Assembly: GCA_043800535.1 (NCBI GenBank)
Contig: JAZDMV010000008.1
Location: 9,251-73,250 of the forward strand
Direction of reading: 5' to 3'
Source of the DNA: a bacterium
GTDB taxonomy: Bacteria > Patescibacteriota > Minisyncoccia > Portnoybacterales > GWB1-42-6
DNA length: 64,000 nt
The notes beneath the pieces were generated by a model. That model searched no databases, had not been told where the DNA came from, and saw only the letters and a list, made by a program, of their open reading frames with translations. The position numbers and the translations under genes are program-made. Below, piece by piece: positions 3,346 to 63,324 of this stretch; position 1 is the stretch's first letter, and the number at the start of each line of letters is the position of its first letter.

Positions 3346-5361
3346 TTACAAAAGTGTTTGTGGGTCTATATCTATTTCCCAGCCGTGCGGCACAAACATT
3401 AAAAGCTTATTGCGGACACGCAGAAGGTTTTCATGTTCGTCTTGCTTTGCAAGCCAGTAGGGCTTTGCCTTGATGATTATCTGCCAGATGTATCTACTTT
3501 TTTGTCTGGCAATAAACGCGGGAACTGCGTCGCTTATCTCAAACACGGCTTCATTTAGAATCTTACCCCCACACTTTAAATCATGCAACTGCGTAGTCGG
3601 CGGTAAAATTGTTTTTTCATCATTAGATTCAATTGTGGCGGTTTGGTCTAAAAAGTGAGGGGGTTTACTTGTTTTTAGCTGTTGGGTCAATTTGGCAGAC
3701 AGAATTTTTGCCTCGTTAGCGGCTTTTGCCGGGTCGCGGTGGCGGAAAACAAGTTTTATTAACTGTGAGAAGGGCGGATATTTAAGGGCTTGTCTGGTTT
3801 CTATTTCTTGTTTATAAAAAGCGTCCCAGCGGCCGACAGCGGCATATTTTAACGCTGCGGCAGACGGATTATAAGTTTGAATGATAAAGGAACAGCCGGC
3901 TGTTTTTTGACTGACTTGTAATTTATGGTCTGGATTCCCGCTTTCGCGGGAATGACAGAAAAGCAGATTTTTTAATTGCGCTATCGTCTGAAACATTTTT
4001 TCGTCAGACCGAAAATCTGGCAAATGCATTAGGGTGTCAGCGGAAATTATTGCGACAAGCGGCACTTTGGGAATATCCGCATTTAATATCATTTGCGTGC
4101 CGATTAAAATGTCGGCCTTTTTTTGGCGGAATTCTTCAATAATTTTATTCTGCTGGATCGCGTCCGGCGCGGTATCGCTGTCCAGCCGCAAAATTTTGGC
4201 GTCCTTGAATAATTTTTGCGCTTCCTGTTCCACTCGTTGCGTCCCGGTCCCGAATGCCTTAATCCTGGAGCTCTGGCATTTTGGGCAAAGTGATGGTGGC
4301 TGTGATTTTTTTCCGCAGTGGTGGCAGATAAGGATCGGTTTTTGTAATTCACCGGATTTTATCAGGTGATACGTGAGTGGCGCCTCGCAACTGGCACATT
4401 TTTCAACATAGCCGCAGTCGCGGCACAAAACAAAAGTGGCCAATCCTCGGCGGTTGATGAATAGAATTACCTGTTGTTTATTTTTGAGCGTTTGCAGAAT
4501 TTCGTCTTGAAGCTGCCGGCTGAATATGGAAAAATTGCCGTCACGCAGTTCCTGGCGCAGGTCAATAATGGACGGAGCCAGACCAGGTACAGCATACCTT
4601 AGATCGGGGTTCTTCTCCGTCTGAGGGTCAGAAGAAAGATAATGTGATTCAATTGAAGGCACGATACTTTTTAGGATCAGCTTTGCATTAAAAATCTCTG
4701 CCAATTTTTTTGTTATTTCATGCACACGATAGTGGGGGAACATGTCCCATGAGTAATGTACAGGATTGGTTTCGTCTTCAATCGTAATTTTTTTAAGGTT
4801 GCAGAAGGGCGCAAAAACAGCAAGGCGCGTGCCGATAATTATTTGTGCTTGGCCCGAGGCAATCTTTTGCCAGGCCTGGGAAAGGTCTTTTGCTTTGAGG
4901 CCGCTATGGATTAGGACGCGGCGGGCTGGGGAAACCTTTTTTGCAAGTATGTCTATTTGCGACACAGTCGGCACGAGAATTAGTATCTGATTTTTATTTT
5001 CACGGTTTGCTGTTAACTGTTTACTGTTAACTTTTTTTGGCATCATCATTTTCAAAAACGCCCCAGGGGAAACAAAATAATACTCGCCCAGCCACAGGGC
5101 GAGTTCGATCTGCTGTTTTGTGAAAATGGGTGTTTCTGACAGGACTTTTTTTATGGGTCGCAATTCATATTCAGCGTCTTTTATTTCCATTTTGCGGCCC
5201 GCGATTTCGTGATTTGCAACAACTGCTGCTTTTTCCTGGCGGCGGCCAAGCGGCACTAAAACTAGACAGCCCACAGCTAAAACCTGGGCTGAAAAATAGC
5301 TAAGAGTTTGAGATCTCTGGAGGGGGGTTTTCGTTAATGGTACTACCTCGGCGAGATACAT
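3346..5361 (-). CDS. priA: Primosomal protein N' (replication restart helicase PriA)
   Basis: N-terminal 3'BD-like VPLGRR region, DEAH-type helicase core, Cys4 zinc-binding cluster (CRDCG...CASC...CHHCG...CPKC) and C-terminal domain. Carries an in-frame repeat-element insertion at 3929-3958. Confidence 0.9.
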   Translation of the reverse strand: MYLAEVVPLTKTPLQRSQTLSYFSAQVLAVGCLVLVPLGRRQEKAAVVANHEIAGRKMEIKDAEYELRPIKKVLSETPIFTKQQIELALWLGEYYFVSPGAFLKMMMPKKVNSKQLTANRENKNQILILVPTVSQIDILAKKVSPARRVLIHSGLKAKDLSQAWQKIASGQAQIIIGTRLAVFAPFCNLKKITIEDETNPVHYSWDMFPHYRVHEITKKLAEIFNAKLILKSIVPSIESHYLSSDPQTEKNPDLRYAVPGLAPSIIDLRQELRDGNFSIFSRQLQDEILQTLKNKQQVILFINRRGLATFVLCRDCGYVEKCASCEAPLTYHLIKSGELQKPILICHHCGKKSQPPSLCPKCQSSRIKAFGTGTQRVEQEAQKLFKDAKILRLDSDTAPDAIQQNKIIEEFRQKKADILIGTQMILNADIPKVPLVAIISADTLMHLPDFRSDEKMFQTIAQLKNLLFCHSRESGNPDHKLQVSQKTAGCSFIIQTYNPSAAALKYAAVGRWDAFYKQEIETRQALKYPPFSQLIKLVFRHRDPAKAANEAKILSAKLTQQLKTSKPPHFLDQTATIESNDEKTILPPTTQLHDLKCGGKILNEAVFEISDAVPAFIARQKSRYIWQIIIKAKPYWLAKQDEHENLLRVRNKLLMFVPHGWEIDIDPQTLL
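3929..3958. repeat. Copy A of the GGATTCC-hairpin-GGAATGACA element, inserted in frame in priA
   Basis: tctGGATTCCCGCtttcGCGGGAATGACAg; translates on the minus strand as CHSRESGNPD inside PriA. Confidence 0.75.
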
Positions 5362-6172
5362 AAAAATATATAACGAGAATAGTTATGAGAGTAAGTGAAC
5401 CGAGCACATCGTGCATAAGGTCATTTGCCGTATCAAATCCGTCGCCGAGGCGGTGAGAGCCAGTTACCAGGTCTTCAAAATACTCCGCTAATTCGTACAG
5501 CACACCAAAAAAGGCAGTTGTCATCCAGGTAATAAATCCGACACCGATTAATCCGACTTTGATTCTGTGGCTGTCCTCCAGCTTTTTGAAAACCCAGAAA
5601 ATTATTGCGGCGCAAGCGACTCCGCCGGCAAAAAAATGCATTATTTGGTCAAACCAATAAAGCTTGTCAAAAAGTTTATGCATGTCGCCAAGCGCATCGG
5701 CAAAAACAGCGGCGCTGGCCATAAGCATCAATAGTCCGAAAATTACCTGGCCGAAGATTTTCTTAGTATAATATAAAATCATTTCAAGTATAAAGCAAGA
5801 GAAAACGGTAGTTGCGATAAGTCCAGTCCAGGTATAATTAATCTGATGATGGACAAGGCCGACTAAATTTAGAAGTTCATAAAAAAGCAGTCCCCAGAGA
5901 AGGATGCGGCTTAAATAGATGAAGAATTTATCTGTTTGGCTCCAGGAAATAGAAATGGCTGTTGATTTTTCCTCTTGAATCAATTCGTCAATCGGCAGAG
6001 AAATTGGCTGGGCGATTATATTTTCTTGAACAATTTCGTTTTCCGGGGCGGAGGAAACAAACAACGCGGCGGACGTTTTTTCTTTTTCTTCCGGAGGAAT
6101 TAACGGCGGGCATGCCGTTCCGTCAAAGTCCGGAGATTTGTTTGAATTTAACATAAATTTTGATATACTCAA
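5300..6172 (-). CDS. Hypothetical integral membrane protein
   Basis: 290 aa with a low-complexity N-terminus followed by 6-7 TM helices and a C-terminal ELAEYFED...LGDGFDT acidic motif. Overlaps the priA start by about 60 nt. Confidence 0.5.
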   Translation of the reverse strand: MSISKFMLNSNKSPDFDGTACPPLIPPEEKEKTSAALFVSSAPENEIVQENIIAQPISLPIDELIQEEKSTAISISWSQTDKFFIYLSRILLWGLLFYELLNLVGLVHHQINYTWTGLIATTVFSCFILEMILYYTKKIFGQVIFGLLMLMASAAVFADALGDMHKLFDKLYWFDQIMHFFAGGVACAAIIFWVFKKLEDSHRIKVGLIGVGFITWMTTAFFGVLYELAEYFEDLVTGSHRLGDGFDTANDLMHDVLGSLTLITILVIYFYVSRRGSTINENPPPEISNS

Positions 6173-6277
6173 ATTAAGCCCGTATTCTTGTTGCAGACAT
6201 CAAGTTTTATTATTCTACAACAGACAATTTGGCGTTGTAAAGCCCTTTTGTCTTAAGATTTATTTTTTTAATATTTT

Positions 6278-6859
6278 ATGAAGAAGCGAATTTTCATAGC
6301 GATCAACTTGTCCGAGGACCTAAGGAAAAAACTTCTTATATTTAGGGACAAATGGGAGTTTTTACCAGTGCGTTGGACAAAAAAGGACAGCCTGCATTTA
6401 ACGCTGGTTTTTATTGGTTACGTGGACGAAGAGGAAATTTATGAGGCTTGCCGGCTGGCCAGGGGAGTTGCGGCGCGGCACGAGGCGTTTGACATAGGTT
6501 TTGAAAGAATTTTATATGGCCCTCCTGCCCTTCGACAAGCTCAGGGTAAAGCACCGCGGATGATTTGGCTTGAGGGAAAAGCGAATGAAAAGTTATCAAA
6601 ATTAAAACTTGAACTCGATGATGTTTTAGCGTCTTCTGAAAGTTTACGTTCTTTCAGGCCGGAAAGACGTCCGTTTTCGCCGCATATCACTTTGGCCAGA
6701 ATGAATATGGACAAATGGCGTGACCTGTCAGAACAGCCGGCAATTGAGCAGGAATTAAAGGCAATTGTGCCGGTTGCGAGCATAGAAGTAATGGAAAGCG
6801 ATTTGAGATGTGATGGAGCGGAATACACGATATTGGAAAGCTGTCCGCTTGAAGGGTAA
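6278..6859 (+). CDS. thpR: RNA 2',3'-cyclic phosphodiesterase (2H phosphoesterase, LigT/ThpR family)
   Basis: Two H-x-T-x motifs (HLTLVF and HITLAR), about 190 aa. Confidence 0.8.
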   Translation: MKKRIFIAINLSEDLRKKLLIFRDKWEFLPVRWTKKDSLHLTLVFIGYVDEEEIYEACRLARGVAARHEAFDIGFERILYGPPALRQAQGKAPRMIWLEGKANEKLSKLKLELDDVLASSESLRSFRPERRPFSPHITLARMNMDKWRDLSEQPAIEQELKAIVPVASIEVMESDLRCDGAEYTILESCPLEG

Positions 6860-6888
6860 TAAGTCCAAAATCCAAAGTTCAAATATCA

Positions 6889-7054
6889 AGTTCTCGACGC
6901 GTTCCGCACGGTGCGGGGCTTGCTCGAACGATAACTCTTCGACAGGCTCAGGATAAAATTTATTCTTCGAGCCCTTCGACCCATTCGACTGCTGCTCAGA
7001 GTGGTGAGCAAAGTTGAACCATGGGTTCAGGGTAAACTTGAGTCGAGAAGTTGA
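6889..7054. repeat. Intergenic composite inverted-repeat element (TTCTCGAC / GTCGAGAA family), copy 1
   Basis: Shares AGTTCTCGACGCGT..GGGCTTGCTCGAA.GATAA and TTCGAGC...GAGTCGAGAAGTT modules with 56705-56826, in swapped order. Confidence 0.6.
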
Positions 7055-9777: not shown

Positions 9778-12564
9778 ATGATTTCTAACGGGGTAAAAAA
9801 CTTTAGCCGAGTTTTATTTTTTGTGCTCACTTTCAGCAGTTTTATTGTTGCTCCCCTGGCAGGCGGGCAGACAGAAAGTGCAGGACTTGTTTATGGCGAT
9901 TCTGATGTTCCGGTAATTCTGCCGCGTTCCGTCTGGGATAATTCGCCAGAGCTCAACGCGCTTTTGAACTGGTTGCCGCAGAACGAAACTTATCCGTCCG
10001 ACTGGCAGCCGATAGAACGGATTGTCGTTCATGATACCGCCACGCCCAATAATGATCCATTTCCGGCGATTGCCAGAATTCAAAGCATTTATCGTTTTCA
10101 TGCGGTCACTAATGGCTGGGGGGACATCGGCTATAATTATTTGATCGACCAGGATGGTAAGATTTATGAAGGCAGGTTTGGCGGCAACGGTTCGCGTGGC
10201 GCTCACGCTTTCAACAGTAAAATGAGCGAAAATTTTAATTATGGAAGCATCGGTATCGCGTTAATTGGCAGTTTTGCTTCAGAGCCGGTTAAGCCAATAA
10301 TGCAGCAGTCGCTGGAACGCCTTATTGGCTGGCTGGCGGCAGCAAACAATCTTGATCCGAGCCAAACGCAAAAAACATTTTCGATCTGGACTCCGTCAAC
10401 TAATAGTTTTAGCTTGTCTTATTCGGGGCCGGTTGTTGTTGGCCACAAAAATATTGACCCGGCAAAATCAGATCCGGGAACGCTGAATTTTGCCGTCGTT
10501 CGCCAGGCGGCTGCTCAATATAAACAGGAATATCTTGGCGTCGTCTATCAGGCACCTAACAGTTCTAAAATTTATCAGCTCGCCAACGGCACGAGCACTG
10601 TTTTTGAAACAGCTGCTGATCTTACAGCGCGGGGAAACACATATCAAAAAATAGCGGCCATAAACCAAAGCCAGCTTAACCTTTTTTCGGCAAGCAGATT
10701 TTTGAAAAATGTTGACGGCAGTTTGCTCAAATTCGCCGGTTCTTCCACAATTTATCTGATTGACGGCGGCAAAAAGCGAAATTTGTCAATCACGGCAAAA
10801 CAATTTAGCGCGCTGGGTTTCGGCTGGGCAAATGTCAAACAGGTGATGGAAAGCGAGCTTGCTTTATATCCAAACGGGTCTCCCATCGTTTATGGTCCTG
10901 ACAAAGAATTGTTGAAAGATGCCAGCGGCCGAGTTTATTATATTGAAAATGGTCGCAAGCGCTGGGTCACTTCCGGCGGGCTGTTTGGAGCACTTGGTTT
11001 GCAGTGGAAAAAAGTTAAAGATAAAACAGACGAATACATGTCTACGGTTTTGGAAGGCGCTAACATGAGCTATCCTTCAGGCACGCTCGCCAAAGCATCC
11101 GGGCCGACGATCTACCTGATAGAAGACGGCGTTAAGCGTGAATTTTTATCCGATAGATCATTTTCGGCGCTGGGTTATCAGAAGAGTAAAATTATCAGCG
11201 TCACAGACGATGAATTATCATTGTATCCCAGCGGCTCTTTTGTTCCGTATAAGAGTGGGACGCTGGCGAGGAGCCAGAATGAAAGCACGATTTGGCGATT
11301 AAGCGGGAACGAAAAGCAGTCATTTGTCTCTGCTGAAGAATTTTTAAATCTCGGATATCAGTGGAAAAATGTGATTTTTGTTTCCGGCGAAGAACTGGTG
11401 CGTTACGCGTCTGGCGGCGATGTAAAATATCCTGACGGCACATTGGTGCAGAAAAAGGGCGATTACAATGTATATCAGATAAAAAGCGGAATAGCCAGTT
11501 TGATTCCTGATGCGGCCACCTTTAAGAAATTGAAATTGTCCTGGGCCAAGGTTCTAAAAATAAGCGCCGATGATTTTGGCAAGCTTTTTGGTTCAATAGC
11601 ATTGGCGGTGCCCAGTGTTCTACCGCCGCAACCGGTGTCACCAGCAACTCCGACGCCAGCTGCCACGCAGCCTGCCTTTCCGGCAGGCGGGCCAAACATC
11701 CGCGTTGCCATTTGGAATGTGCCGTCAAGCCAAACAGAAGTTGTTTTTAGCGCAGGTGGTCCTTATGACGTTTTTGATAAAAACGGAAATTTAATTGCGA
11801 GCAAAGCCGCCGGCGAGCAGTATTCGGTAAACACGGCAAACCCGACCAATACCTTTGTCCGGCTTACTCCAAAATCAGGGACAATTCTTGAAGCGGTTTC
11901 TTATCAGGATATCGCTTCGTGGAAAACCGGTTTAAACTACAATAAATTCCGGGGCAATCTTGAATTGGTTTATTCGAATAAATCAGGCAAGCTCTGGATG
12001 GTCAACGAGTTGCCGCTTGAAGAGTACTTGAAAGGCGTGGCAGAAACAAATCAGGGGCTGGCAGTGGAGTATTTAAAAACAATGGCCGTGGCAGCGCGTA
12101 CTTACGCCTTGTTCTATTACAATCAGGGCGGCAAGTACGGCAGTGATCAAGTTTATCATATAACTAATACAACCTCTGACCAACTATACAAAGGATATGG
12201 CCGCGAGCCGTATGCTTCCGACATTGTGACAGCCGCGCAGGCAACCTTGGGCGAGATCGTGTCTTACAATAACGGGCCCGTTGTCACAGCTTATAGCTCC
12301 GGCGCCGCGGAGCTTATGTCCGCTGGTTCCAGGTCCGCCTGTTCTGTCTGGGGCGGCAAATACTGCCAGGCGGGATTTGAATATTTAAAGGGCGGGGTTA
12401 AAGACCCCGAAGGCACAACATACAGCTATGACGTTTGTGGAAGCGGCAATCATTGTGTCGGGTTGTCGGGCGCCGGAACTCGGCGATTCGCCGCCCTCGG
12501 CAAAACATACAAAGAAATTTTGACGTATTATTATTTGGGGACGGAGGTTAAGAAAATCTATTAG
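9778..12564 (+). CDS. Secreted multidomain peptidoglycan hydrolase: N-acetylmuramoyl-L-alanine amidase (Amidase_2/PGRP) + 5 tandem ~70-aa repeats + SpoIID/LytB domain
   Basis: Signal peptide; amidase_2 segment (HDTATPNN...GWGDIGYNYLID). Five internal repeats (TIYLIDGGKKRNLS...LALYPNGS). C-terminal SpoIID-like region (AVAARTYALFYY...GYG...). Confidence 0.8.
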   Translation: MISNGVKNFSRVLFFVLTFSSFIVAPLAGGQTESAGLVYGDSDVPVILPRSVWDNSPELNALLNWLPQNETYPSDWQPIERIVVHDTATPNNDPFPAIARIQSIYRFHAVTNGWGDIGYNYLIDQDGKIYEGRFGGNGSRGAHAFNSKMSENFNYGSIGIALIGSFASEPVKPIMQQSLERLIGWLAAANNLDPSQTQKTFSIWTPSTNSFSLSYSGPVVVGHKNIDPAKSDPGTLNFAVVRQAAAQYKQEYLGVVYQAPNSSKIYQLANGTSTVFETAADLTARGNTYQKIAAINQSQLNLFSASRFLKNVDGSLLKFAGSSTIYLIDGGKKRNLSITAKQFSALGFGWANVKQVMESELALYPNGSPIVYGPDKELLKDASGRVYYIENGRKRWVTSGGLFGALGLQWKKVKDKTDEYMSTVLEGANMSYPSGTLAKASGPTIYLIEDGVKREFLSDRSFSALGYQKSKIISVTDDELSLYPSGSFVPYKSGTLARSQNESTIWRLSGNEKQSFVSAEEFLNLGYQWKNVIFVSGEELVRYASGGDVKYPDGTLVQKKGDYNVYQIKSGIASLIPDAATFKKLKLSWAKVLKISADDFGKLFGSIALAVPSVLPPQPVSPATPTPAATQPAFPAGGPNIRVAIWNVPSSQTEVVFSAGGPYDVFDKNGNLIASKAAGEQYSVNTANPTNTFVRLTPKSGTILEAVSYQDIASWKTGLNYNKFRGNLELVYSNKSGKLWMVNELPLEEYLKGVAETNQGLAVEYLKTMAVAARTYALFYYNQGGKYGSDQVYHITNTTSDQLYKGYGREPYASDIVTAAQATLGEIVSYNNGPVVTAYSSGAAELMSAGSRSACSVWGGKYCQAGFEYLKGGVKDPEGTTYSYDVCGSGNHCVGLSGAGTRRFAALGKTYKEILTYYYLGTEVKKIY

Positions 12565-14070: not shown

Positions 14071-15228
14071 ATGTTGATCGGCATTGATGCACACTGGCTG
14101 GAGGGGAATCGCACCGGCGTTGGCCGGTACCTTTTTAATTTACTCAAAGCTTGGTCCCGTTCCGAATCTGACATACTCTCCCGTGCTCCCGAGCACGGGA
14201 GAGTATGTCAGGTAAAGTTTGTATTGTATTTTAAGGACGAGATACCGAAAGATTTGCCGCAGTCGTCTTTGTTTAAGGTAATGCTTCTAAATGTGAAAAG
14301 CACGGCTAAATTCATCCATTGGGACTTGTGCCGGGCGGCTTGCAAGGATAAGGTGGATGTCCTGTTTTGTCCCGCATATATTGCGCCGCTATTTTATAGC
14401 GGTAAAATCGCGTTAACGCTCCATGACATAATCTATGAAACGCATCCGGAATGGTTTGAATGGAAAAGCTGGGCAGATAAGATTTTGCTCAAATGGGTTT
14501 CAAAGATCTCGGCGCGCAAGGCGGCTTTAATTTTTACCATTTCTGATTTTTCGCGGCAGGAAATTATCGAATATTTTAGGATCAAAGCAGAAAAAATAAA
14601 GGCAATCCCTTTGGCAGGAGACATCGGGGAGGTAGCGGAAGGGGGAAGCGATGAGATACTGAAAAATCAATTCGGCATCAAAGACCGGTTCGGATTTTAT
14701 GTCGGCTCGATTTTTAACCGGCGGCATTTGTCCGAAATAATTGACGCGTTTTCCAGAATTGCGCAGGAAAGATCAGATTTTCAGCTGTTGCTGGCTGGTA
14801 AAGACCATACAAAGCCCGCACAGGACATAAGAGGCAAGGCCGAAAAGGTAAATAAAAAATTGGAGCGGCATGCGATTTTAAGGGTTGATTTTGTGAACGA
14901 TCATGAGTTAAAATTATTGTATAACGCATGTGCGTTTTTTATTTACCTTTCCGATTACGAAGGGTTTGGATTGCCACCCTTGGAAGCGATGGCCTTGGGC
15001 GCGCCAACCATAACCAGCGATGCAACTTCGCTAAAAGAAGTGGCTGGTTCGGCCGCGCTGTTGGTGAAAGAAAATTCAGATACAGAAGAAATTTATCAGG
15101 CGATGAAGAAGATTATAGACGAGGAAGCATTGCGGTCGCGGCTGATAGAAAAAGGCAAGGAGCAAGCGGCGAAATTTTCCTGGAAAAAATGTGCGGAGGA
15201 GACATTATCAGAATTATTAAACGCGTGA
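14071..15228 (+). CDS. Glycosyltransferase family 4 carrying an in-frame palindromic-repeat insertion
   Basis: GT4 N-terminus MLIGIDAHWLEGNRTGVGRY and C-terminal EGFGLPPLEAMALGAP motif. The 42-nt palindrome at 14169-14210 is translated as DILSRAPEHGRVCQ. Confidence 0.8.
   Translation: MLIGIDAHWLEGNRTGVGRYLFNLLKAWSRSESDILSRAPEHGRVCQVKFVLYFKDEIPKDLPQSSLFKVMLLNVKSTAKFIHWDLCRAACKDKVDVLFCPAYIAPLFYSGKIALTLHDIIYETHPEWFEWKSWADKILLKWVSKISARKAALIFTISDFSRQEIIEYFRIKAEKIKAIPLAGDIGEVAEGGSDEILKNQFGIKDRFGFYVGSIFNRRHLSEIIDAFSRIAQERSDFQLLLAGKDHTKPAQDIRGKAEKVNKKLERHAILRVDFVNDHELKLLYNACAFFIYLSDYEGFGLPPLEAMALGAPTITSDATSLKEVAGSAALLVKENSDTEEIYQAMKKIIDEEALRSRLIEKGKEQAAKFSWKKCAEETLSELLNA
14169..14210. repeat. 42-nt perfect palindrome (CATACTCTCCCGTGCTCC family), copy 1, in-frame within the GT4 gene
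   Basis: TGACATACTCTCCCGTGCTC-CC-GAGCACGGGAGAGTATGTCA; 20+2+20 nt, 14 codons. Confidence 0.9.
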
Positions 15229-21461: not shown

Positions 21462-21556
21462 GTCATCCAGAGGCGCGCAGCGCCGAAGGATCCCGCGCGA
21501 TGACAGTTATTGACTTAGCGGACGGGATTGCTTCGTCGTTTCACTCCTCGCAATGA
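21462..21556. repeat. Hairpin repeat related to the AATGACA family (GGATCCCGCGCGATGACAG...CTCCTCGCAATGACAAA)
   Basis: Shares the tail GATTGC..CG.CG.TTC.CTCCTC.CAATGACA with 35930-36002. Confidence 0.6.
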
Positions 21557-24593: not shown

Positions 24594-24613
24594 AATCCTT
24601 AGAAGCTTACTAG

Positions 24614-24651
24614 ACATACACTCCCGTGCTCCCGAGCACGGGAGTGTATGT
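24614..24651. repeat. 38-nt perfect palindrome, copy 2 of the CATAC(T/A)CTCCCGTGCTCC family
   Basis: ACATACACTCCCGTGCTCCCGAGCACGGGAGTGTATGT, 21 nt after the stop of the upstream gene. Confidence 0.9.
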
Positions 24652-24689
24652 GCGATTGGTGTTTTGATGGGAAATAGGGAAAAAATCGT

Positions 24690-31230: not shown

Positions 31231-31241
31231 ATTCTCTTTCT

Positions 31242-31309
31242 GTCATTCCGTGCCTGACACGGAATCCAGGTTTGTGGGCCTGGATTCCGGCTTTCGCCGG
31301 AATGACAAC
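31242..31309. repeat. Copy B of the modular AATGACA element (TIR TGTCATTCC...GGAATGACA)
   Basis: TGTCATTCCGTG-cctga-CACGGAATCCAGG-tttgtgg-GCCTGGATTCC-GGCtttcGCC-GGAATGACA; sits between murG and the next gene. Confidence 0.8.
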
Positions 31310-32423: not shown

Positions 32424-32506
32424 TGGAAGATTTAAGAATTTAGATTTTAGATTTAAGAATTTTGTCCGTTGTTCTTAAATCATGAATCTTAAATCTTAAT
32501 TCTAGA

Positions 32507-35760: not shown

Positions 35761-35929
35761 TTTTTTCTCCTTTCTATCCCGCCGATTCAGGCGGATATTT
35801 GATTTTTTCAAAAGAACACTTCGACAAGCTCAGTGTAAACTCATCTCTTTATAGAGACAGGAATGAAAGGGAGATTGAAAAGCAAAATATTGCCTAACCT
35901 CCCCTCCATACCTGTCGCTACAAGATATT

Positions 35930-36002
35930 ATCGCTGGTTTGTTGCGCTGATCGCGGACTCCCGCGAGATTGCCACGTCGCTTCGCTCCTCACAATGACAG
36001 AC
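35930..36002. repeat. Second copy of the ..CTCCTC.CAATGACA hairpin repeat
   Basis: GATCGCGGACTCCCGCGAGATTGCCACGTCGCTTCGCTCCTCACAATGACAG; related to 21462-21556. Confidence 0.6.
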
Positions 36003-36301
36003 ATTTTATATTTCAAGCAAAAAGCGGCTCCTTTGAGAGAGTCGCTTTTTGCTTGGTCCCACGGCCTAGACGAATCCGGGCTTGGGACTATCCGTTTATA
36101 CGTATAATCAGATAGTAAGTAAAAACGTTTATCCTCACACCTTCAGAATGCCTTGCAAGGTGTGGGGATTTATTTAAGCAGTTTCCCGCCTAAATCTCTC
36201 TCTAAACGCGGTTTAATTTAAATTTGAAAAAACACTAACTTTTCTTTATACCTCTATTATAGCATATCTGGAACTACCTGTCAATGGTTGACTATTTTCT
36301 G

Positions 36302-36393
36302 TAATTCCCGTGCCGCGCCCTTCCGAAGCTTTGAGCAAAGGAGGGAAAACGGGAATCCAGAATCTGGATTCCGGGTCAAGCCCGGAATGACAC
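36302..36393. repeat. Copy D of the modular AATGACA element (long form)
   Basis: AATTCCCGTG...GAAGCTTTGAGCAAAGGAGGGAAAACGGGAATCCAGAATCTGGATTCCGGGTCAAGCCCGGAATGACACA. Confidence 0.8.
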
Positions 36394-36950
36394 AATATTT
36401 TTTGCCCTTCCTCCCCAAATTTCATGAGCCATTCATAAAATCTCGGGTGGAAGGGGCAGGCGTATTTCTAATTTTTACCTGCCCCTTTTTTTTGAAATCT
36501 CTAAGGTACTCATTCGGGGCACAGCCGCCTCTGCCTCACGTGTGTTGGTTTTTTATTTTCGTCTGGACCATGCCCGTGATACAAACCAGACGACCTCATC
36601 CTTGCCATTTAACGGACGTTTTTCGATACGTCCGGGGTGAATGGTCTCAGCTTGCGCTCGAACTTTTGTTCATCGTGAGCTTGCATGCTGGCCAGACACC
36701 TGGATGGATTTCGCTTTTACGCGGAAGGATTTCCCATGCCTTTGGGTTATCCGCAACCTCCTAAGAGGAAAATGTGGCGGGTCTTGCCTAGGGACCCATT
36801 CGTCAATCTTTATCTAATGACTCTCACCTCCCTCTCCTGAAGCGGCGCGAGCTTTGTCGGCCGCTGGCTGAAATTTCCCGATTTCCTACTATATCATAAA
36901 TAAAAAACCTTGTCAAGAGTTGGCAAGGGTTTAGTCGTAACGATGAATTT

Positions 36951-36993
36951 AACTCACCCCACCCCTCTCTTTAAAAAAGAGAGGGAGTTTTTT
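36951..36993. repeat. AACTCACCCCACCCCTCTCTT...AAGAGAGGGAG hairpin repeat, copy 1 (terminator-like)
   Basis: Near-identical to 57711-57747; lies after the mraY stop. Confidence 0.7.
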
Positions 36994-38041
36994 AAATTAC
37001 TTTATCCAGAAACGCAAGGATTAGGCCGACGGCCGCGGTCATGCCGGAAATTATCCAGAAACGCATAGTGACTTTTGTTTCGGGCCAGCCCTTGCCTTCA
37101 AAATGGTGGTGTATCGGCGTTGATAAAAATATCTTTTTGCCGCCTCGCAATTTTTTTGAAATCGTCTGAATGATGACAGAAAGCGATTCTATCATCGGAA
37201 TAAAAGCAATGAGCGGCAGAAGCAGAAATTGGTTTGTTAGCATGGCGATTATGCCAAGCGTGATGCCGAGAGCCACTGCGCCAGTGTCACCCATAAAAAA
37301 ACGGGCCGGGTGGATATTGAACCATAAAAATGCCAGTAGCGCGCCGATAATGACGGCGCAAAAAGCCGTCAGATCATACCGGCCGAGCGAATATGCTATA
37401 GCGCCATAAGCGCCAAAAGCAGCCAGAAGCGTGCCGCCAGCCAGGCCATCAAGGCCGTCGGTTTCGTTAACAGAAAAAGCGGTGGCAACAAGAATGAAAA
37501 TAAAAACGGGGATATACCAGAGTCCAATATTAAAATCACCGACAAAAGGAATATGCACAATGCTCCATTCAAGTTTTGAAAAGAACCACCACGCGCCCAC
37601 CGCGGCTATAGCAGTGTAGACTAAAATTCGGTGGCGCATGCGTAATCCCCCGCCCTTTGGGCCGATGCGAAAGACCCCCAGCAGGTCATCGATTAAACCG
37701 ACCAGAGCCGAGGCGACGAGAGCCCCTAAAGGAAGCAAGGTCTCCGCACGGTTAAAAAAATTCATTCTGCCGATAAAAGAATCAATGCCCAGTTTTGGCA
37801 GAAGCCAGAAAATAAAGATCAAAAGCACGACCGTGAACCAGATCAGAATTCCGCCCATTGTTGGAGTCCCCTCTTTTTTTGCGTGCATGGAAGCAAAAAC
37901 CGGCACGCCTTCTGTGCGGATCTGTTTGCCGAGGCGGTATTTATATAAAAAATGGGTTAAGGCCGGCGTCAGAAAAAAAGCCACCAAAAACGCCAGAGCG
38001 CTTAAGGTTAAAATGCGGGAGATTTGGAAGATGTCGGTCAT
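36992..38041 (-). CDS. mraY: Phospho-N-acetylmuramoyl-pentapeptide transferase
   Basis: 10-TM protein with conserved MraY cytoplasmic loops (DDxxG, HHHFE). Confidence 0.9.
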   Translation of the reverse strand: MTDIFQISRILTLSALAFLVAFFLTPALTHFLYKYRLGKQIRTEGVPVFASMHAKKEGTPTMGGILIWFTVVLLIFIFWLLPKLGIDSFIGRMNFFNRAETLLPLGALVASALVGLIDDLLGVFRIGPKGGGLRMRHRILVYTAIAAVGAWWFFSKLEWSIVHIPFVGDFNIGLWYIPVFIFILVATAFSVNETDGLDGLAGGTLLAAFGAYGAIAYSLGRYDLTAFCAVIIGALLAFLWFNIHPARFFMGDTGAVALGITLGIIAMLTNQFLLLPLIAFIPMIESLSVIIQTISKKLRGGKKIFLSTPIHHHFEGKGWPETKVTMRFWIISGMTAAVGLILAFLDKVI

Positions 38042-39366: not shown

Positions 39367-39876
39367 CTATTTCTTCTTCTGGCTGAAGCTTCCTTTTATT
39401 AACGTCGGGTCAAGCTTTGATAAAACTGCTGGCGCGATTTTAAGAGAGTTCTGATAATCCCCCGCGCTGACTATAATTTTTGATGGTTTGATAAGCGCGT
39501 TGTCAATGAATGTCGGCAGTTTGTAGAAAATTCCGAAAGCGGGCGTGGCGCCGACTTTGATGCCTTTGAGCGATTTTTTCATCCACTGTTCTTTGGCAAA
39601 ATCAATTTTTTTGAATGGTGCGAGCTTTGTTTTCTGCCTTTGTTTGTTTACGAGCGCGAGCAATTTTTTCTTGTCAAGATTTTTGCTGGCCGGGATCAAG
39701 GATAGCATATGATATTTGACGTCCAGGCTGACGACCACGCTTTTGGCCACTTCCTGCGGTTTTAATTTAAGCGTAGCTGCTTTATCAAGGGCGGTGTAAA
39801 CAACTCGGTGTTTTACGATTTCGTATTTGACTTTGTTTTTATCTAAAAAGTTAAGAAGGGACTTTGGGATAGGCAT
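39367..39876 (-). CDS. YbaK/ProX-type aminoacyl-tRNA deacylase domain protein
   Basis: 169 aa; N-terminal LNFLDKNKVKYEIVKH and YbaK fold pattern. Confidence 0.7.
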   Translation of the reverse strand: MPIPKSLLNFLDKNKVKYEIVKHRVVYTALDKAATLKLKPQEVAKSVVVSLDVKYHMLSLIPASKNLDKKKLLALVNKQRQKTKLAPFKKIDFAKEQWMKKSLKGIKVGATPAFGIFYKLPTFIDNALIKPSKIIVSAGDYQNSLKIAPAVLSKLDPTLIKGSFSQKKK

Positions 39877-39883: not shown

Positions 39884-39994
39884 TGTCATTCCGTGCTTGC
39901 TTGCCCGTCCGTAGCTTTAGCGAAGGAGGGACACGGAATCCAGCCAGCCTGTTGCGGCAGATGGATCCCGCATCAAGTGCGGGATGACAGGAAT
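39884..39994. repeat. Copy E of the modular AATGACA element (longest form, about 110 nt)
   Basis: TGTCATTCCGTG-CTTGCTTGCCCGTCCGTAGCTTTAGCGAAGGAGGGA-CACGGAATCCAG...GGATCCCGCAtcaagTGCGGGATGACAGGAAT; begins 8 nt upstream of the ybaK-like start codon. Confidence 0.85.
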
Positions 39995-45748: not shown

Positions 45749-46231
45749 TTATGGAGTGTCCCAACATCCGGGGTGGTCGTAATAGTAGAGTGGGTATTCC
45801 CCTTTAGCCCCGCTACTTATGCAATACCAATTGCCATTATTAAGCGGGACCATCCACGACCAAGTAGTGTCACAACCGATAGTTGTCCCGCCTGTATAGA
45901 TACGATAGCCTGGGTCGTAGTTGACATTATTGTATATCGCTTTACAAATTTGGCGGGCTTTATCGGCATAAGTTCCAGAAAATGCAGTATCACAAGTGGG
46001 ACCGCTGGCAGTAATCCATCCCGCCTGCAAGTTGCAATAATTTCCGTAATCATCGTAGTTGAATTGCATCAAGGTAGCAACTTGATCAAGTTCTGCCTTA
46101 ATACTGGCATCTCTCGCTTTAGTCCTCGCGCTATTTAAACTTACCAAAACAATCGTCGCCAAAACCCCAATAATAGCAATGACCACCAAAAGTTCAATAA
46201 GTGTAAAACCTTTATTATTTCTCAAATACAT
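45749..46231 (-). CDS. Type IV pilin-like protein (prepilin N-terminal methylation motif)
   Basis: [19 protein letters not shown] class III signal peptide. Confidence 0.75.
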   Translation of the reverse strand: MYLRNNKGFTLIELLVVIAIIGVLATIVLVSLNSARTKARDASIKAELDQVATLMQFNYDDYGNYCNLQAGWITASGPTCDTAFSGTYADKARQICKAIYNNVNYDPGYRIYTGGTTIGCDTTWSWMVPLNNGNWYCISSGAKGEYPLYYYDHPGCWDTP

Positions 46232-48015: not shown

Positions 48016-48044
48016 CGGGCTGTAGGCGATCGTGAAATGCTATA

Positions 48045-48086
48045 GTGCATACACTCCCGTGCTCCCGAGCACGGGAGTGTATGCAC
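48045..48086. repeat. 42-nt perfect palindrome, copy 3
   Basis: GTGCATACACTCCCGTGCTC-CC-GAGCACGGGAGTGTATGCAC, 30 nt after the malic enzyme stop. Confidence 0.9.
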
Positions 48087-48098
48087 GAATAGAAACAT

Positions 48099-48286: not shown

Positions 48287-49039
48287 CTAGTTTGACACTT
48301 GATAGTATTTGTTTGTTCCATTCCATCCCTGTTGGTTGGCCTGCAGGACGCCGGTTCCGCCGCCAGGAGTTGGGGCTGATAGATTAGGCAGGGTGACGCC
48401 TTCGCTGTCATTCTCCAGATTAACATAAAGCGCGCATTTGGAGTTTTCGTCGGCCATGTAATGGTAGTTTGACTGGGTTTCTGTGCCTGTTTGCGGGTCT
48501 TTTGGCACCTGCGAAATATAATTTTGGACCTGCGGGTATTTTATTTTTATTTCATCAAATAATTGGGCGATATCATAATCCCCTGTTCCTTGGTTCGGCA
48601 TATAGCAGGTTGAGCCCGAAAGAAATCTGCCGATCTGAGAAATTTCTGTTTTGCGCCTGACGTCCCTTGCTTTGGCGCGGGCCGGGCCGGTCGCAACAAT
48701 TATAACGCCGGCCAGAACCCCGATAATGGCCATAACTATAAGAAGTTCAATTAGCGTGAAGCCGCGTTTTTTAAAAAAGCCGCGGTATCTCTTTTGGACA
48801 TAAATAATTTGCCACCATCTTTGTCCCAAAAAATAACCGCCCAAAATTCCCGCGGCAAGAAGCACAATCGTGCCAAGCGTATGTATAAAAAACCAATCAG
48901 ACCAGGAAAGGCCAAGGCCGTATGTCGCAAAATTGTTTGAAAGCAGAACGATGACGAAAATTTCAATAAGGCCGTGGAGAATAAAACTTAAAAGACCGCC
49001 CAAAATTACGCAAAAAAATATATAGACGATTTTTTTCAT
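48287..49039 (-). CDS. Fusion protein: N-terminal ~100-aa polytopic membrane domain + type IV pilin-like domain
   Basis: [24 protein letters not shown] prepilin motif occurs at residue ~101 with no in-frame start codon before it. The preceding 100 aa are 3 TM helices. Confidence 0.55.
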
Positions 49040-49436: not shown

Positions 49437-49805
49437 CTAATTGCCGTGGCCGTTCGACAAAAGCCACTGCCAGACAATACGGATATAGAAGGATTTTGGT
49501 CTTTCTTGAAACGGAATAAGGCGTTCAATCTCATCGTGGCATGGTCGGCAAACTTCAAAGGTCAGCTTATTGATATTGCCATTGCCGAAAAATCTTTTTG
49601 GAAAAATGTGATGGGTGGTGCGCGATTCCGAACGGCGGCATTTTATGCATCGTTTTTTCTTTTTTGACGCGGCGGCCTCCTTTTCAATTGCTTGTAGCGT
49701 AAAAATGTCGTCCTTGGTTAATATTTGATTTGGTTCAAGGCTGGCTGATGACCGCAGATTAGTGACCTGAGTTGCCAATTCGTTGCAGGCGATGCTCGTT
49801 TGCAT
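49437..49805 (-). CDS. HNH endonuclease
   Basis: CIKCRRSE...HHIFPKRFFGNGNINKL...CRPCHDEIE HNH/zinc-ribbon motif. Confidence 0.75.
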   Translation of the reverse strand: MQTSIACNELATQVTNLRSSASLEPNQILTKDDIFTLQAIEKEAAASKKKKRCIKCRRSESRTTHHIFPKRFFGNGNINKLTFEVCRPCHDEIERLIPFQERPKSFYIRIVWQWLLSNGHGN

Positions 49806-52525: not shown

Positions 52526-53283
52526 TAGGATTTTTTAAAAAAAAGGCAATAGAATGGCGCCTGCGCGCAAAACTGCGTAAACAGTTTAGCCCGCGGCCCG
52601 AATTTCTGGCTTATTGCCGGGCTATTTTTCTCGAAAAAGCGGCGCAGAGGAATCCGGCCGGGCAGACCAAGCTGGCAGGCGGTTTTTATTTTGCCAGTTT
52701 TGCTAGATACAGTTTAGTTTCGTTTTTTGTTCTGTTGTTTTTGGGCAGCGGCGCGGCTGTCTATGCAGACGCGACAAACGTCAGCTACGGCCATCCGCTT
52801 TACAATTTTAAACTGGCAGTTGAGACAGTGCGCGTCAAAGTGGCGCCAGGCGGAAAAGCCGCAGTTTTGCGCACCGAATTTGCCGAGCGCCGCGTACAGG
52901 AAATAAAAATAGTCACAACGCAGAAACCAATGGCCGAGGCCGCTGAAAGCACAAAAGCTGAAAATGTAAAGGATGGCGTGCAAACAAAGGCAGGAGCAAA
53001 AGAACAGGAACACCAGCAAAAGATGGCTGATCTGCGCAGTCACTTAAAGAAGCAGGTTGATCTGGTCGTTGAGGAAATAGAAGAAAAGAAAGCAAAAAGC
53101 GCCAGCGCGGCAGAATTATGCGATTCTATGTCGCGGGTGATGAAGGAAGATGAAGAAATTGACAGAGAAGAGACAAAGGAGGAGCACGAACAGAGCTGGG
53201 CTCGCTTCAAAAAAAATTGCAGCGAATTTATGAATGACAAAGATAGCGGCAAGGTTAAAAACCGCGAAAGCAGCAATGACTGA
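52522..53283 (+). CDS. Putative anti-sigma factor (single TM, E/K-rich extracytoplasmic domain)
   Basis: Translationally coupled to the sigma gene (ATGA overlap). One TM at residues about 55-78. Confidence 0.5.
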   Translation: MIGFFKKKAIEWRLRAKLRKQFSPRPEFLAYCRAIFLEKAAQRNPAGQTKLAGGFYFASFARYSLVSFFVLLFLGSGAAVYADATNVSYGHPLYNFKLAVETVRVKVAPGGKAAVLRTEFAERRVQEIKIVTTQKPMAEAAESTKAENVKDGVQTKAGAKEQEHQQKMADLRSHLKKQVDLVVEEIEEKKAKSASAAELCDSMSRVMKEDEEIDREETKEEHEQSWARFKKNCSEFMNDKDSGKVKNRESSND

Positions 53284-53473
53284 ACAATAACGAGCTGGGC
53301 GTCAACAAGGCCTCTTTTCGCGGGGCTTTTTTATTTGCTTTAAGATAACAGAAGAATAATTTTTGTAACAAAGGCAATTTTTGAGCGTATTGATAAACAG
53401 ACAAGCAGAGGTTTTTATTTTATTTAATTTTTGTAAAGGTCGAACTTTAAACAATTAAGACAAATTCCAGCTT

Positions 53474-54055
53474 ATGAAAAAATTAGCAGCTAGATTAGCC
53501 ATGTTTCTGGGAGTTTTTACGCTTGCCTTGAGCCCGGTGCTGGCTGTCGCCACATACGCGGCGACAACGCATGCCTGGCTTGTTTCGGGCACCGCCACAG
53601 AAATTACAAGCACCAGCTTAAAGCTGACGCGCGGCAACAAGGTCTATACTGTGAATGTTTCCTCTTCTGCGACCGTGGTTGATAATGACTGGCAGGATAT
53701 CTCTTTAAACGAAATCCACACGGGTGACCGAGTTTTTGTTTTTGGCAAGGTTAATGATGTGACGATTGAGGCGATTTACGTCAAAGACAGGTCTGTGCCG
53801 GTTAAAATAGATGTCAGGGAAATGTCAGGAACGGCATCAAGCGTCTCTTCCGCTTCGTTTAGCTTAAAACGGGGAAGCAAGACGTCAACCATCAATATCG
53901 GCTCGCACACCATGCTGTTTGACAAGAACTGGGGAAATATAAGCTTGAGCGATATAAAAGACGGGCATCGGGTGACGGTTTACGGCCGGACCACTGATAA
54001 CGGCGCGACAGTTAACGCGGTATATGTAAAGGACAAAGATCTGCCTGCGTCTTAA
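53474..54055 (+). CDS. Secreted protein with two ~60-aa tandem beta-rich repeats
   Basis: Signal peptide; repeats LKLTRGNKVYTVNV...VTIEAIYVKD and FSLKRGSKTSTINI...ATVNAVYVKD. Downstream of the sigma/anti-sigma pair. Confidence 0.6.
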   Translation: MKKLAARLAMFLGVFTLALSPVLAVATYAATTHAWLVSGTATEITSTSLKLTRGNKVYTVNVSSSATVVDNDWQDISLNEIHTGDRVFVFGKVNDVTIEAIYVKDRSVPVKIDVREMSGTASSVSSASFSLKRGSKTSTINIGSHTMLFDKNWGNISLSDIKDGHRVTVYGRTTDNGATVNAVYVKDKDLPAS

Positions 54056-54101
54056 AAGGCGCAATAAAACAGTTCTTTTTCTTGCAAGACTAAAATAATT
54101 G

Positions 54102-54943: not shown

Positions 54944-54962
54944 ATTATTGCAAAATGTAATT

Positions 54963-55004
54963 TGACATACTCTCCCGCGCTCCCGAGCGCGGGAGAGTAT
55001 GTCA
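54963..55004. repeat. 42-nt perfect palindrome, copy 4
   Basis: TGACATACTCTCCCGCGCTC-CC-GAGCGCGGGAGAGTATGTCA between the ABC ATPase and permease genes. T/A to C/G compensatory pair relative to copy 1. Confidence 0.9.
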
Positions 55005-55017
55005 TGTTTGAGTTTAT

Positions 55018-57697: not shown

Positions 57698-57710
57698 GTA
57701 TTTAAATTAT

Positions 57711-57747
57711 AACTCACCCCACCCCTCTCTTAAATTAAGAGAGGGAG
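57711..57747. repeat. AACTCACCCCACCCCTCTCTT...AAGAGAGGGAG hairpin repeat, copy 2
   Basis: Matches 36951-36993; between convergent gene ends. Confidence 0.7.
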
Positions 57748-57757
57748 AAGAGTAAAA

Positions 57758-58720
57758 TTATTTCACCACCGAATTGATAATGCTTTTGACCGCGTTTACG
57801 GGAATTGAAAAACTGATGTTGTTTGAGCCAACAACCGTGGCCACATTGACGCCCACAACCCTGCCCTGCAGATCAACCAGCGGGCCGCCTGAATTGCCGG
57901 GGTTAATGGCCGCGTCGGTCTGAATGACGCCTGACAATGTTTCGGTGCCACTGGCGGTGGCGGCCTGAATGGTTCGGTTAAGCCCGGAGATTATGCCGAC
58001 AGAAACCGAATTGCTGTATTCGCCAAGCGCGTTGCCAACGGCAAAGACCGTCTGGCCAAGCGCCAGCGCGCCTGAATTGCCCAGCTCCTCGCTTGCATAA
58101 CCGCTGCCCGGAATTTTAATTATGGCAATGTCGTTTGAAGGGTCCCGATACACGACCTGGGCTGTTTTCTGCGCGCCGCTGGCCAGAAGCACAGTATAAT
58201 CGGCGGCGGTATCTTCAACCACGTGGCGGTTGGTTAGAATATAACCGGTTGAACGGATTAAAAATCCTGTGCCGGCGCCGACTTTTTGCCGCTCTGTGCC
58301 GGTTTGCCGATAAACCGGCACGCGGAAGTTAAAATCCTTAAAAAACGGGTCGTTGCCGAACGGATTTTCATAGACAATTTCCAGCTTTGGCACGTCTTTG
58401 GAAATAACAATTGAAACAACCGAAGGCGAGGCTTTGGCCACGGCGGCGGTAAGCAATTCTTCCTGGGATTTTTGCTTGACTTCCTCGCGCCGCGCCAGCT
58501 CATCCTTGACCACAGAGCTTTCTTTGGCCACGTCTTCTATTCGCTGGCCAAGCGCATCAAATTGCTTATTCTGCATTTGGAGCGCGCTTACCTGATTTTC
58601 CAAACTTGCTAAACGCCCATTCTGGTAGCTCAACTTTTTATTCATAATAAAAGCAGTCGTGGCGGCGGTCAGCACGATTACCATAAAAGAGAAAGTAATG
58701 ATTTTGCCGATCTGCGACAT
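57758..58720 (-). CDS. Trypsin-like serine protease (S1C/HtrA-like, no PDZ) with N-terminal TM and coiled coil
   Basis: Catalytic-triad segments TNRHVV, DIAI and NPGNSGGPL. Confidence 0.85.
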   Translation of the reverse strand: MSQIGKIITFSFMVIVLTAATTAFIMNKKLSYQNGRLASLENQVSALQMQNKQFDALGQRIEDVAKESSVVKDELARREEVKQKSQEELLTAAVAKASPSVVSIVISKDVPKLEIVYENPFGNDPFFKDFNFRVPVYRQTGTERQKVGAGTGFLIRSTGYILTNRHVVEDTAADYTVLLASGAQKTAQVVYRDPSNDIAIIKIPGSGYASEELGNSGALALGQTVFAVGNALGEYSNSVSVGIISGLNRTIQAATASGTETLSGVIQTDAAINPGNSGGPLVDLQGRVVGVNVATVVGSNNISFSIPVNAVKSIINSVVK

Positions 58721-59860: not shown

Positions 59861-59892
59861 AATCTGGATTCCCGCTTTCGCGGGAATGACAG
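59861..59892. repeat. Copy F of the GGATTCC-hairpin-GGAATGACA element (short form)
   Basis: AATCTGGATTCCCGCtttcGCGGGAATGACAG; identical core to the priA-internal copy. Confidence 0.8.
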
Positions 59893-62854: not shown

Positions 62855-62916
62855 TCTTTTCCCTCCTTTTTTGAATTTGGTCTTACGTTTAAGAAACTTT
62901 ATTCACCTCCTCTCTT

Positions 62917-63120
62917 CTAGAATGGTGGCTTGCATGGCTTGTCAGAAAAAAGGTCAACGAACGCGGCAATCAGGCCGATTAAAACGACAGCGGAAATCAC
63001 AGCCAGGACGGCGTTAGGCAGGATCTTTATGATTGCCACAAGAGCAATAAGAACTGCACCCATCTTTGCTGAAAAACGCAGGTCCCCTTTTGTGAAAACC
63101 GGTTGCGGCTTGAATGGCAT
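62917..63120 (-). CDS. Small membrane protein (67 aa)
   Basis: RBS AAAGGGGGTG before ATG; one or two TM helices. Confidence 0.5.
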   Translation of the reverse strand: MPFKPQPVFTKGDLRFSAKMGAVLIALVAIIKILPNAVLAVISAVVLIGLIAAFVDLFSDKPCKPPF

Positions 63121-63287
63121 TTTGCACCCCCTTTAAAAGATTTTGAAAAGAACGGCTGAAATATAAAGAGTAATATGCTTTTTGTTTTACTCGCTATCTT
63201 CAATAATAAAACACTGACACGGAAATGTCAATGTTTTTGGTACAAAAATTTTCTCGCGCAAATAAACAACATTCGCCCATTTGGGCG

Positions 63288-63324
63288 GGATTCCTCCCCC
63301 GCGAATGCGGGGTCGGAATGACAG
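63288..63324. repeat. Copy G of the GGATTCC-hairpin-GGAATGACA element (variant inner hairpin)
   Basis: GGGATTCC-TCCCCCGCgaatGCGGGGTC-GGAATGACAG. Confidence 0.75.

Follow-up and report, generated by a model that had tools for sequence, protein, structure and literature searches.

Why should one short hairpin recur throughout a 64-kb stretch of bacterial DNA, in the spacers of a cell wall gene cluster and even in frame inside a helicase gene? The question is raised by positions 9,251 to 73,250 of contig JAZDMV010000008.1 (GenBank assembly GCA_043800535.1), the 64,000 nucleotides that we refer to as the window, whose host is a Portnoybacteria-like member of the Patescibacteria within the candidate phyla radiation (CPR). 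We conclude, with a probability of roughly 70%, that the window repeats belong to the Ssn-related motifs (SRM), and among these to the dRS3/NTS type (NTS, Neisseria Transformation Sequence), that is, oriented hairpins of single-stranded DNA of the kind bound by Ssn nucleases. What is new is that NTS/SRM repeats are present in a CPR bacterium and that one of them runs in frame through priA; the family itself has already been described.

The repeats are far too frequent to have arisen by chance. The sequence GGAATGACA was found eight times in the window, compared with 0.44 expected, and the composite GGATTCC-N(6-30)-GGAATGACA matched seven times with 0 expected, which bears out the original prediction of at least seven copies sharing a GGATTCC-hairpin core. 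The inventory comprised 11 hairpin units at seven sites (three singlets and four doublets), and a structure-aware scan of the window (GTCAT-hairpin-ATC) returned the same sites and no extra units. The sites were as follows.

E1, 3930-3957, minus strand: singlet, TGTCATTCCCGCGAAAGCGGGAATCCAG, in frame inside priA; DNA hairpin of -11.1 kcal/mol, z -5.5.
E2, 31241-31307: doublet of unit a (31241-31269, plus strand) and unit b (31280-31307, minus strand), with a 10-nt spacer.
E3, 33684-33788: doublet of long unit a (33684-33743, plus strand) and unit b (33759-33788, minus strand), in the murD-ftsW spacer.
E4, 36300-36392: doublet of long unit a (36300-36360, plus strand) and unit b (36364-36392, minus strand), with a 3-nt spacer.
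E5, 39884-39989: doublet of long unit a (39884-39943, plus strand), which carries the insert CTTGCTTGCCCGTCCGTAGCTTTAGCGAAGGAGGGA, and unit b (39961-39989, minus strand).
E6, 59864-59891, minus strand: singlet, 36 nt downstream of the stop (59927) of a DUF763 gene; -12.9 kcal/mol, z -5.9.
E7, 63288-63323, minus strand: singlet, downstream of an open reading frame (ORF) at 63344-63610 (minus strand); -11.2 kcal/mol, z -2.65.

Read in its forward sense, the unit is TGTC-ATTCC-(3 variable bases)-loop-(3 complementary bases)-GGAAT-CCAG. Its 8-bp stem consists of ATTCC plus three variable, compensating base pairs, and its loop is either of GNNA type or CTTGA. E6 was identical to E1 over 31 nt. E7 had an extended stem (ATTCC-GA-CCCCGC-ATTC-GCGGGG-GA-GGAAT), and unit b of E5 was an ATCCC/GGGAT variant. 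Each doublet paired two units on opposite strands, 3-18 nt apart, so that its outer ends read TGTCATTCC...GGAATGACA. The left unit of three of the four doublets contained a loop insert of 36-37 nt, and these inserts were homologous to one another (family D7). For example, the long unit of E3 combined a 36-nt insert with a stem, ATGCCGGA/TCCGGCAT, that is degenerate, and that of E4 read TGTAATTCCCGT..ACGGGAATCCAG with a 37-nt insert. The D7 insert is the conserved CTTGCTTG..AGCTTTAGCG.AGGAGGG insert of the original prediction, whose description of long forms with an upstream module held for all three doublets.

E2 fell between the murG stop (31317) and the start of the next gene (31230), and as DNA it folded into a single long hairpin (-23.1 kcal/mol, z -7.3). 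The edge of E5, at 39884, was 8 nt from the start codon (39876-39874) of a tRNA_edit gene (39367-39876, minus strand), exactly as had been noted before. Copies had also been placed in the short spacers of the division and cell wall (dcw) cluster around murG, ftsW and murD; this is correct for the murD/ftsW and murG spacers, while the spacer between ftsW and murG itself has no copy.

Both the stem and its flanks appear to be constrained. Folded as single-stranded DNA, the canonical units formed hairpins with z of -5.5 to -7.3. Across all loci retrieved, 386 of 433 units had a perfect stem of exactly 8 bp; stem pairs were counted by script, and the MAFFT alignment (A4) misplaces the 5' arms by one column. 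In the same 433 units the inner three stem pairs varied with compensation (CGC, GGC, TGC, CGA, GCA, GGG, and others), and the loops, in a sample biased by the search pattern, were mostly GAAA, GAAG or GCAG, or CTTGA. The flanks TGTC and C(C) were invariant in 15 aligned CPR units (alignment A4). Exceptions in the window were confined to degenerate long units, with TATC at 33684 and TGTA at 36300. Compensated stems combined with invariant flanks indicate that the structure and the unpaired flanks, which give the unit its orientation, are under selection.

The identity of the family follows from comparison with Neisseria. The NTS is a 28-nt sequence, CGTCATTCCCGCGMAVGCGGGAATCYRG, which contains dRS3 (ATTCCC-N8-GGGAAT), and the SRM is defined by the pattern HGTCWYN(0-2)YYVSBRHN(0-5)WNVSBRGN(0-2)RNCYNB (Chenal et al., Nat Commun 2025, PMC11893778). 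E1 and E6 each differed from the NTS only at its first position, where they have T in place of C, and one mismatch is what its authors tolerate in their own consensus search (PMC11893778). Overall, NTS matching in the window gave two copies at one mismatch and one at three mismatches (0 expected). Exact dRS3 was present twice (0 expected), at 3934-3953 within E1 and 59868-59887 within E6, and the remaining units failed strict dRS3 with ATTCCG.. or ATCCC.. stems. The SRM pattern matched five window units, E1 among them, compared with 0.11 expected from 100 shuffles; the other six came close to it but had longer loops or variant stems. These exact dRS3, near-exact NTS and SRM matches overturn the earlier suggestion that the family was undescribed (PMC11893778).

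The known partner of the motif is SsnA, a 94-aa single-domain GIY-YIG protein (cd10448) that binds to the motif and cleaves a few bases to its 5' side, acting on single-stranded DNA only and on one strand only (PMC11893778). In N. meningitidis, the three bases 5' of the palindrome are critical for cleavage and the C just 3' is critical for binding (PMC11893778). These positions were preserved in nearly all window units. The window repeats also share with the NTS its 28-nt sequence but for the first base (T in the window, C in the NTS), its oriented flanks, its 8-bp hairpin, loops of GNNA type and a mostly intergenic location; in N. meningitidis, 2% of NTS fall inside genes (PMC11893778). The differences lie in the host, as Portnoybacteria-like Patescibacteria go unmentioned in the main text of PMC11893778, in the lack of an ssn gene within the window, in the prevalence of doublets and long nested forms among the window copies, and in the one copy that is in frame in a coding sequence. 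Of the two conditions under which the original prediction was to fall, a match to a known family with an assigned transposase therefore holds in part: the family is known, but the enzyme paired with it is a nuclease with no proof of transposase activity. The other, restriction of the copies to the window, does not hold.

The arrangement of the units recalls a second Neisseria system. Neisserial intergenic mosaic elements (NIME) are RS units of 50-150 bp with dRS3 on both sides. The window likewise has exact dRS3 at two sites and composite arrays in which hairpin units flank short modules. In contrast to NIME, most window units join ATTCC to other inner stems, and the extra module lies inside the loop of one unit.

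The same sequence was widespread outside the window, to which the copies are by no means confined. The window 28-mer TGTCATTCCSGCGAAAGCSGGAATCCAG (S at two positions) was present in at least 120 stretches among species-representative genomes, spanning more than 20 named bacterial groups. By record title, these included alpha-, beta-, gamma- and delta-proteobacteria, Planctomycetota, Chloroflexota, Bacteroidota, Nitrospirota, Verrucomicrobiota, Acidobacteria (Candidatus Acidoferrum), Actinomycetes, Armatimonadota, Omnitrophota, Atribacteria, Zixibacteria and Eubacteriales, among others. A further search with CTGGATTCC-N(8-14)-GGAATGACA matched at least 120 stretches in IMG/VR contigs. Among the listed 28-mer matches, 11 loci were from CPR bacteria (Parcubacteria, Saccharibacteria, Falkowbacteria, Magasanikbacteria, Jacksonbacteria and Sungiibacteriota). 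In these loci the units were again singlets or inverted doublets within short operon spacers; in a Saccharimonadales locus (L178), for example, they sat in an arginine/lysine-type operon. The MurG and PriA of the window were most similar to those of Patescibacteria/Parcubacteria metagenome-assembled genomes (MAGs), several of them named Candidatus Portnoybacteria. One relative (L005; MurG 73% identical) had five units in 21 kb, including a long-form doublet just after murG, in a place analogous to that of E2.

Copies also differed between relatives. In the closest relative (L001; MurG 92% identical), the murD-ftsW spacer had no E3-type element, and the 60 nt after murG had no E2-type element. 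Together with priA (below), these presence/absence differences between close relatives show turnover of copies. The prediction of modular hairpins with inverted ends, similar in kind to repetitive extragenic palindromes (REP) and miniature inverted-repeat transposable elements (MITEs), is supported. The ftsW-murG spacer (window 32424-32506 and L001 3481-3621) was filled with AT-rich short repeats resembling AATCTAAAATCTAAATTCTTAAATC. Elsewhere, an 833-bp window segment (53235-54067) with an ORF at 53474-54055 (weak DUF5666 match) was missing from a metagenome contig (L247) that was otherwise approximately 82-85% identical, a gene-sized indel between close relatives.

The E1 singlet is not intergenic. 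It lies within the following gene.

priA ORF, 3346-5361, minus strand: matches PriA structures (E 2e-52) and is 100% identical to NCBI MFH0852157.1.

The frame stayed open through E1, which encodes the peptide ..FQTIAQLKNLLFCHSRESGNPDHKLQVSQKTAGCSFIIQTYNP.. (..CHSRESGNPD..). A PriA segment of 22-27 residues with E1 was absent from five orthologs (P0122, P0123, P0124, P0127 and P0134; alignment A3), and three other orthologs had different repeat-derived insertions at the same spot. In E. coli PriA, the equivalent position is that of helicase motif VI. On reading the sequences, we found that the GRAGR of motif VI was missing in all members of the Portnoybacteria-like clade to which the window PriA belongs, and that no Walker A motif was apparent in the window PriA. 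This PriA is probably not an active ATPase or helicase, and its E1 region is probably under relaxed constraint. We propose that the region has become an insertion hot spot because of this relaxed constraint.

The window gene had a second in-frame palindromic insertion at approximately 3562-3660 (ACCCCCTCACTTT...AAAGTGTGGGGGT), which it shared with ortholog P0123. In a Portnoybacteria MAG (GCA_028688325.1, JAQTYI010000003.1; locus L364), a whole long-form SRM doublet (11717-11811) was in frame inside priA, encoding ..VIPAPHQVRGKLETGIQ..SGSRVKPGMT... The peptide ..HPERSEGS.. further upstream in this priA may be read as a product of the GTCATCCTGAGCGAAGCGAAGGATC hairpin type, which also occurs just downstream of the ssn gene at that locus (see below). 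In having palindromic repeats in frame within a protein-coding gene, where they would add a peptide loop, the window resembles Rickettsia palindromic elements (RPE), with two such insertions in priA; the RPE-type likeness noted in the original prediction finds support in a coding copy. Unlike RPE, the window singlet is much shorter (28 nt), and only one of the seven window sites is coding.

Genes for Ssn-type proteins adjoined the repeat in nine other loci, with products of 88-97 aa. Their hosts were four IMG/VR contigs, Sphingomonas cavernae, Propionivibrio, a Verrucomicrobiota MAG, a deltaproteobacterial MAG and an Anaerohalosphaeraceae MAG. A Pfam scan of five of the nine proteins returned a single-domain GIY-YIG (PF01541) in every case. 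Eight of the nine genes were bracketed by repeats in the geometry TGTCAT..CCAG-[ssn]-CTGG..ATGACA, with the forward unit roughly 5-55 nt before the start and the opposite-strand unit roughly 5-55 nt after the stop. Published ssnA genes commonly have the motif at their flanks (PMC11893778). As the outer geometry of these cassettes is that of the four window doublets minus the gene, we read the doublets as miniature cassette derivatives. They look like gene-less, MITE-like forms of ssn cassettes, a correspondence of layout and not a proof of descent. With at least 7,986 proteins at E<=1e-10, the Ssn-type family is of very great size. Most members were on contigs shorter than 2 kb, which fits multi-copy, repeat-flanked genes that break assemblies.

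An Ssn-type gene was also present in a Portnoybacteria relative. The neighbourhood of the PriA ortholog in GCA_028688325.1 (L364) contained a GIY-YIG gene that matched an Ssn profile hidden Markov model (HMM), built from 24 Ssn sequences, at E 8e-38.

L364 Ssn-family protein, GCA_028688325.1: 95 aa, sequence MKNYYIYIATNYTNSVLYTGITNN...

Ssn-family genes therefore exist in this CPR lineage. The gene occupied a slot between amidase/SpoIID and GT2 genes, and the syntenic slot in the window held an unrelated 140-aa ORF. The same locus contained three ATTCC-type long-form doublets like those of the window, including the one inside its priA. No CPR-named protein was among the best 120 of at least 7,986 Ssn-family matches.

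These data suggest how the repeats might arise and spread. Doublets would be gene-less miniatures of SRM-ssn-SRM cassettes, singlets would be solo cassette ends, and long forms would result when the loop of one hairpin module takes in a second module. The source genome would encode, outside the window, an Ssn-type nuclease that binds the forward strand whenever this becomes single-stranded, be it during replication, repair or the uptake of DNA, and its nick would fall a few bases 5' of the hairpin. Doublets would multiply as units. For the host, side effects may include strong hairpins in the mRNA of the dcw operon and extra loops in the degenerate PriA. A bolder extension is that the SRM-ssn-SRM cassette is truly mobile and represents a new mechanistic class of element, in which a hydrolytic GIY-YIG single-strand nuclease is the driving enzyme. 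The window doublets would be its non-autonomous miniatures, actively colonising small CPR genomes (including in frame in a degenerate PriA), and constraint by the nuclease would account for the 28-mer shared across more than 20 named groups. We offer this extension tentatively and consider it somewhat doubtful.

Several points weigh against the SRM reading or this extension of it. No Ssn/GIY-YIG gene was detected by regex, tblastn or profile HMM in the 64-kb window, nor by the same methods in approximately 215 kb of other CPR DNA (L364 excluded). The ssn gene of L364 is flanked by another hairpin variant (ATTCTGAG..GAARAATCT; GTYATTCTGAG...GAARAATCT) and not by the ATTCC type, and that variant was absent from the window. 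Assignment of the repeat-flanking proteins to cd10448 is provisional, based on their size, domain and context. Flank inspection revealed no target-site duplication at the window copies. No base-by-base empty site was recovered, as the dcw spacers of L001, L002 and L005 were too diverged to align. Finally, GIY-YIG enzymes are hydrolytic nucleases and are not known to have any copy-and-insert chemistry.

Some of these points would suit another history, in which the repeats are orphan SRM-type relics without a cognate Ssn, spread by recombination or horizontal transfer and kept as useful or neutral hairpins (mRNA stabilisers or processing sites, like the REP and bacterial interspersed mosaic elements (BIME) of E. 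coli). The lack of ssn from the window and from most CPR DNA examined agrees with this, as does the published survey of genomes with more than 200 SRM, in which 81% had ssnA and 19% did not (PMC11893778). Units in operon spacers (the dcw cluster, and the arginine/lysine-type operon of L178) and the co-orientation of all singlets with their flanking genes also fit a role in mRNA. However, RNA hairpin function alone hardly explains why the flanks needed for Ssn binding and cleavage are invariant while the stems vary. Nor are the hairpins followed by a T-run, and an Ssn gene is present in the Portnoybacteria relative. We consider such relics unlikely. Indeed, no rival explains the preserved Ssn-critical flanks as well as the SRM reading does.

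The other alternatives invoke a different enzyme. REP elements and their doublets (REPINs), the latter being the replicating unit, are mobilised by REP-associated tyrosine transposases (RAYT; Y1/IS200 type), and the window repeats are like them in being frequent, short extragenic palindromes, often inverted doublets with short spacers in operon spacers, with a probable action as single-stranded hairpins and an associated gene flanked by its own repeats. In the present case that gene is a GIY-YIG nuclease (bracketed by the exact repeat in eight of nine loci elsewhere) and not a RAYT, and no Y1 transposase (Y1_Tnp) was found among the 58 window ORFs scanned with Pfam. The repeat equals NTS/dRS3 and is not known to equal any REP consensus; RAYT mobilisation is very improbable. 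A similarly slight chance attaches to classical MITEs that would have TGTCATTCC/GGAATGACA as their terminal inverted repeats and depend on a DDE transposase acting in trans. Doublets with such ends and variable internal content would fit, yet the 28-nt singlets are complete hairpins and not pairs of terminal repeats, the window offers neither a transposase nor, on inspection of the flanks, target-site duplications, and a 28-mer found in more than 20 named groups is unlike MITE families tied to one insertion sequence (IS). Lastly, the hairpins could mainly serve site-specific elements (IS110-family insertion sequences or filamentous phage) as places of attachment or as targets, a role reported for dRS3 in Neisseria. 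IMG/VR contigs commonly carry the motif, and dRS3 has been cited as the target of a phage recombinase (PMC11893778). Nevertheless, no integrase, IS110 or prophage adjoined any window copy, and use as a target explains neither the multiplication of sites nor the conserved, orientation-giving flanks. This idea is compatible with the SRM reading and does not replace it; as the main explanation we give it scant chance.

Transcription-related readings were also considered. A terminator reading was rejected, as no T-tract followed the hairpins at the window sites. The only matches in an Rfam search at the gathering threshold were two tRNAs, and the repeats themselves matched no RNA family. The forward strand of all three singlets was the window minus strand, and the neighbouring genes have that strand as their sense strand. 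GC skew was positive across the entire window (approximately 45% G+C). With so few cases, the co-orientation of singlets with neighbouring genes and GC skew is only a hint.

Two further copies had been assigned to the family as relatives. They share with it only the TGTCAT/ATC tails and belong to a separate, widespread family (family 2). The two units and a degenerate neighbour were as follows.

Family-2 unit, 21520-21556, minus strand: TGTCATTGCGAGGAGTGAAACGACGAAGCAATCC; no canonical fold, z +0.77.
Degenerate TGTCATCGCGCGGGATCC.. unit, 21462-21505: adjoins the family-2 unit at 21520-21556.
Family-2 unit, 35960-36002, minus strand: TGTCATTGTGAGGAGCGAAGCGACGTGGCAATCTC; no canonical fold, z +0.83.

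The family-2 consensus, TGTCATTGCGAGGAGCG-N-AGCGACG-NR-GCAATC, was found in 115 IMG/VR stretches (loci L249-L363). No Ssn-type gene was detected in 1 Mb around these 115 sites, so that family 2 gave no sign of being an Ssn motif.

Other repeats were also present in the window. A perfect palindrome of approximately 40 nt, GACATACTCTCCCGTGCTCCCGAGCACGGGAGAGTATGTC (family D1), occurred at 14165-14213, 24608-24656, 48041-48089 and 54959-55007, and folded as DNA with -24.7 kcal/mol (z -11.3). Its sequence is similar to NTSvar, a published motif (CGTCATACTCGGG-N5-CCCGAGTATC). No exact match was found in 185,579 species genomes; only three small JGI contigs carried D1, and these held no Ssn and no SRM. 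Smaller repeats included TAACTCACCCCACCCCTCTCTT..AAGAGAGGGAG (two copies, 36950-37008 and 57710-57768) and CTTCGACAAGCTCAGGGTAAA (three copies, 6530-6550, 6937-6957 and 35819-35839). The copy at 6529-6545, reverse complement CCTGAGCTTGTCGAAGG, may form a hairpin with tandem G.A mismatches. Two genes for pilin-like proteins bearing the N-terminal methylation motif, together with a small ORF that matched HNH_5 weakly, occupied the interval from two tRNA genes to a P-type ATPase gene (45749-46231, 48287-49039 and 49437-49805).

For annotation, the SRM family explains many of the spurious small ORFs and odd peptides in MAGs (e.g. ..SFPRKRES.., ..DSRFRGND.. and ..CHSRESGNP..), and it should be masked ahead of gene calling. 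The dRS3/NTS system, studied as a modulator of transformation in Neisseria, extends to ultra-small CPR bacteria. These organisms are believed to rely on taking up DNA, and the window has two pilin-like genes. An Ssn/SRM pair in them could have single strands as its substrate, whether incoming or in replication. Two points are of some interest, namely the in-frame copies in a degenerate PriA and the correspondence of cassette and doublet. Whether such hairpins are mobile is a question raised by Chenal et al. 2025 (PMC11893778), and the match between the gene-bearing cassette and the gene-less doublet is a testable hint that they spread as mobile units.

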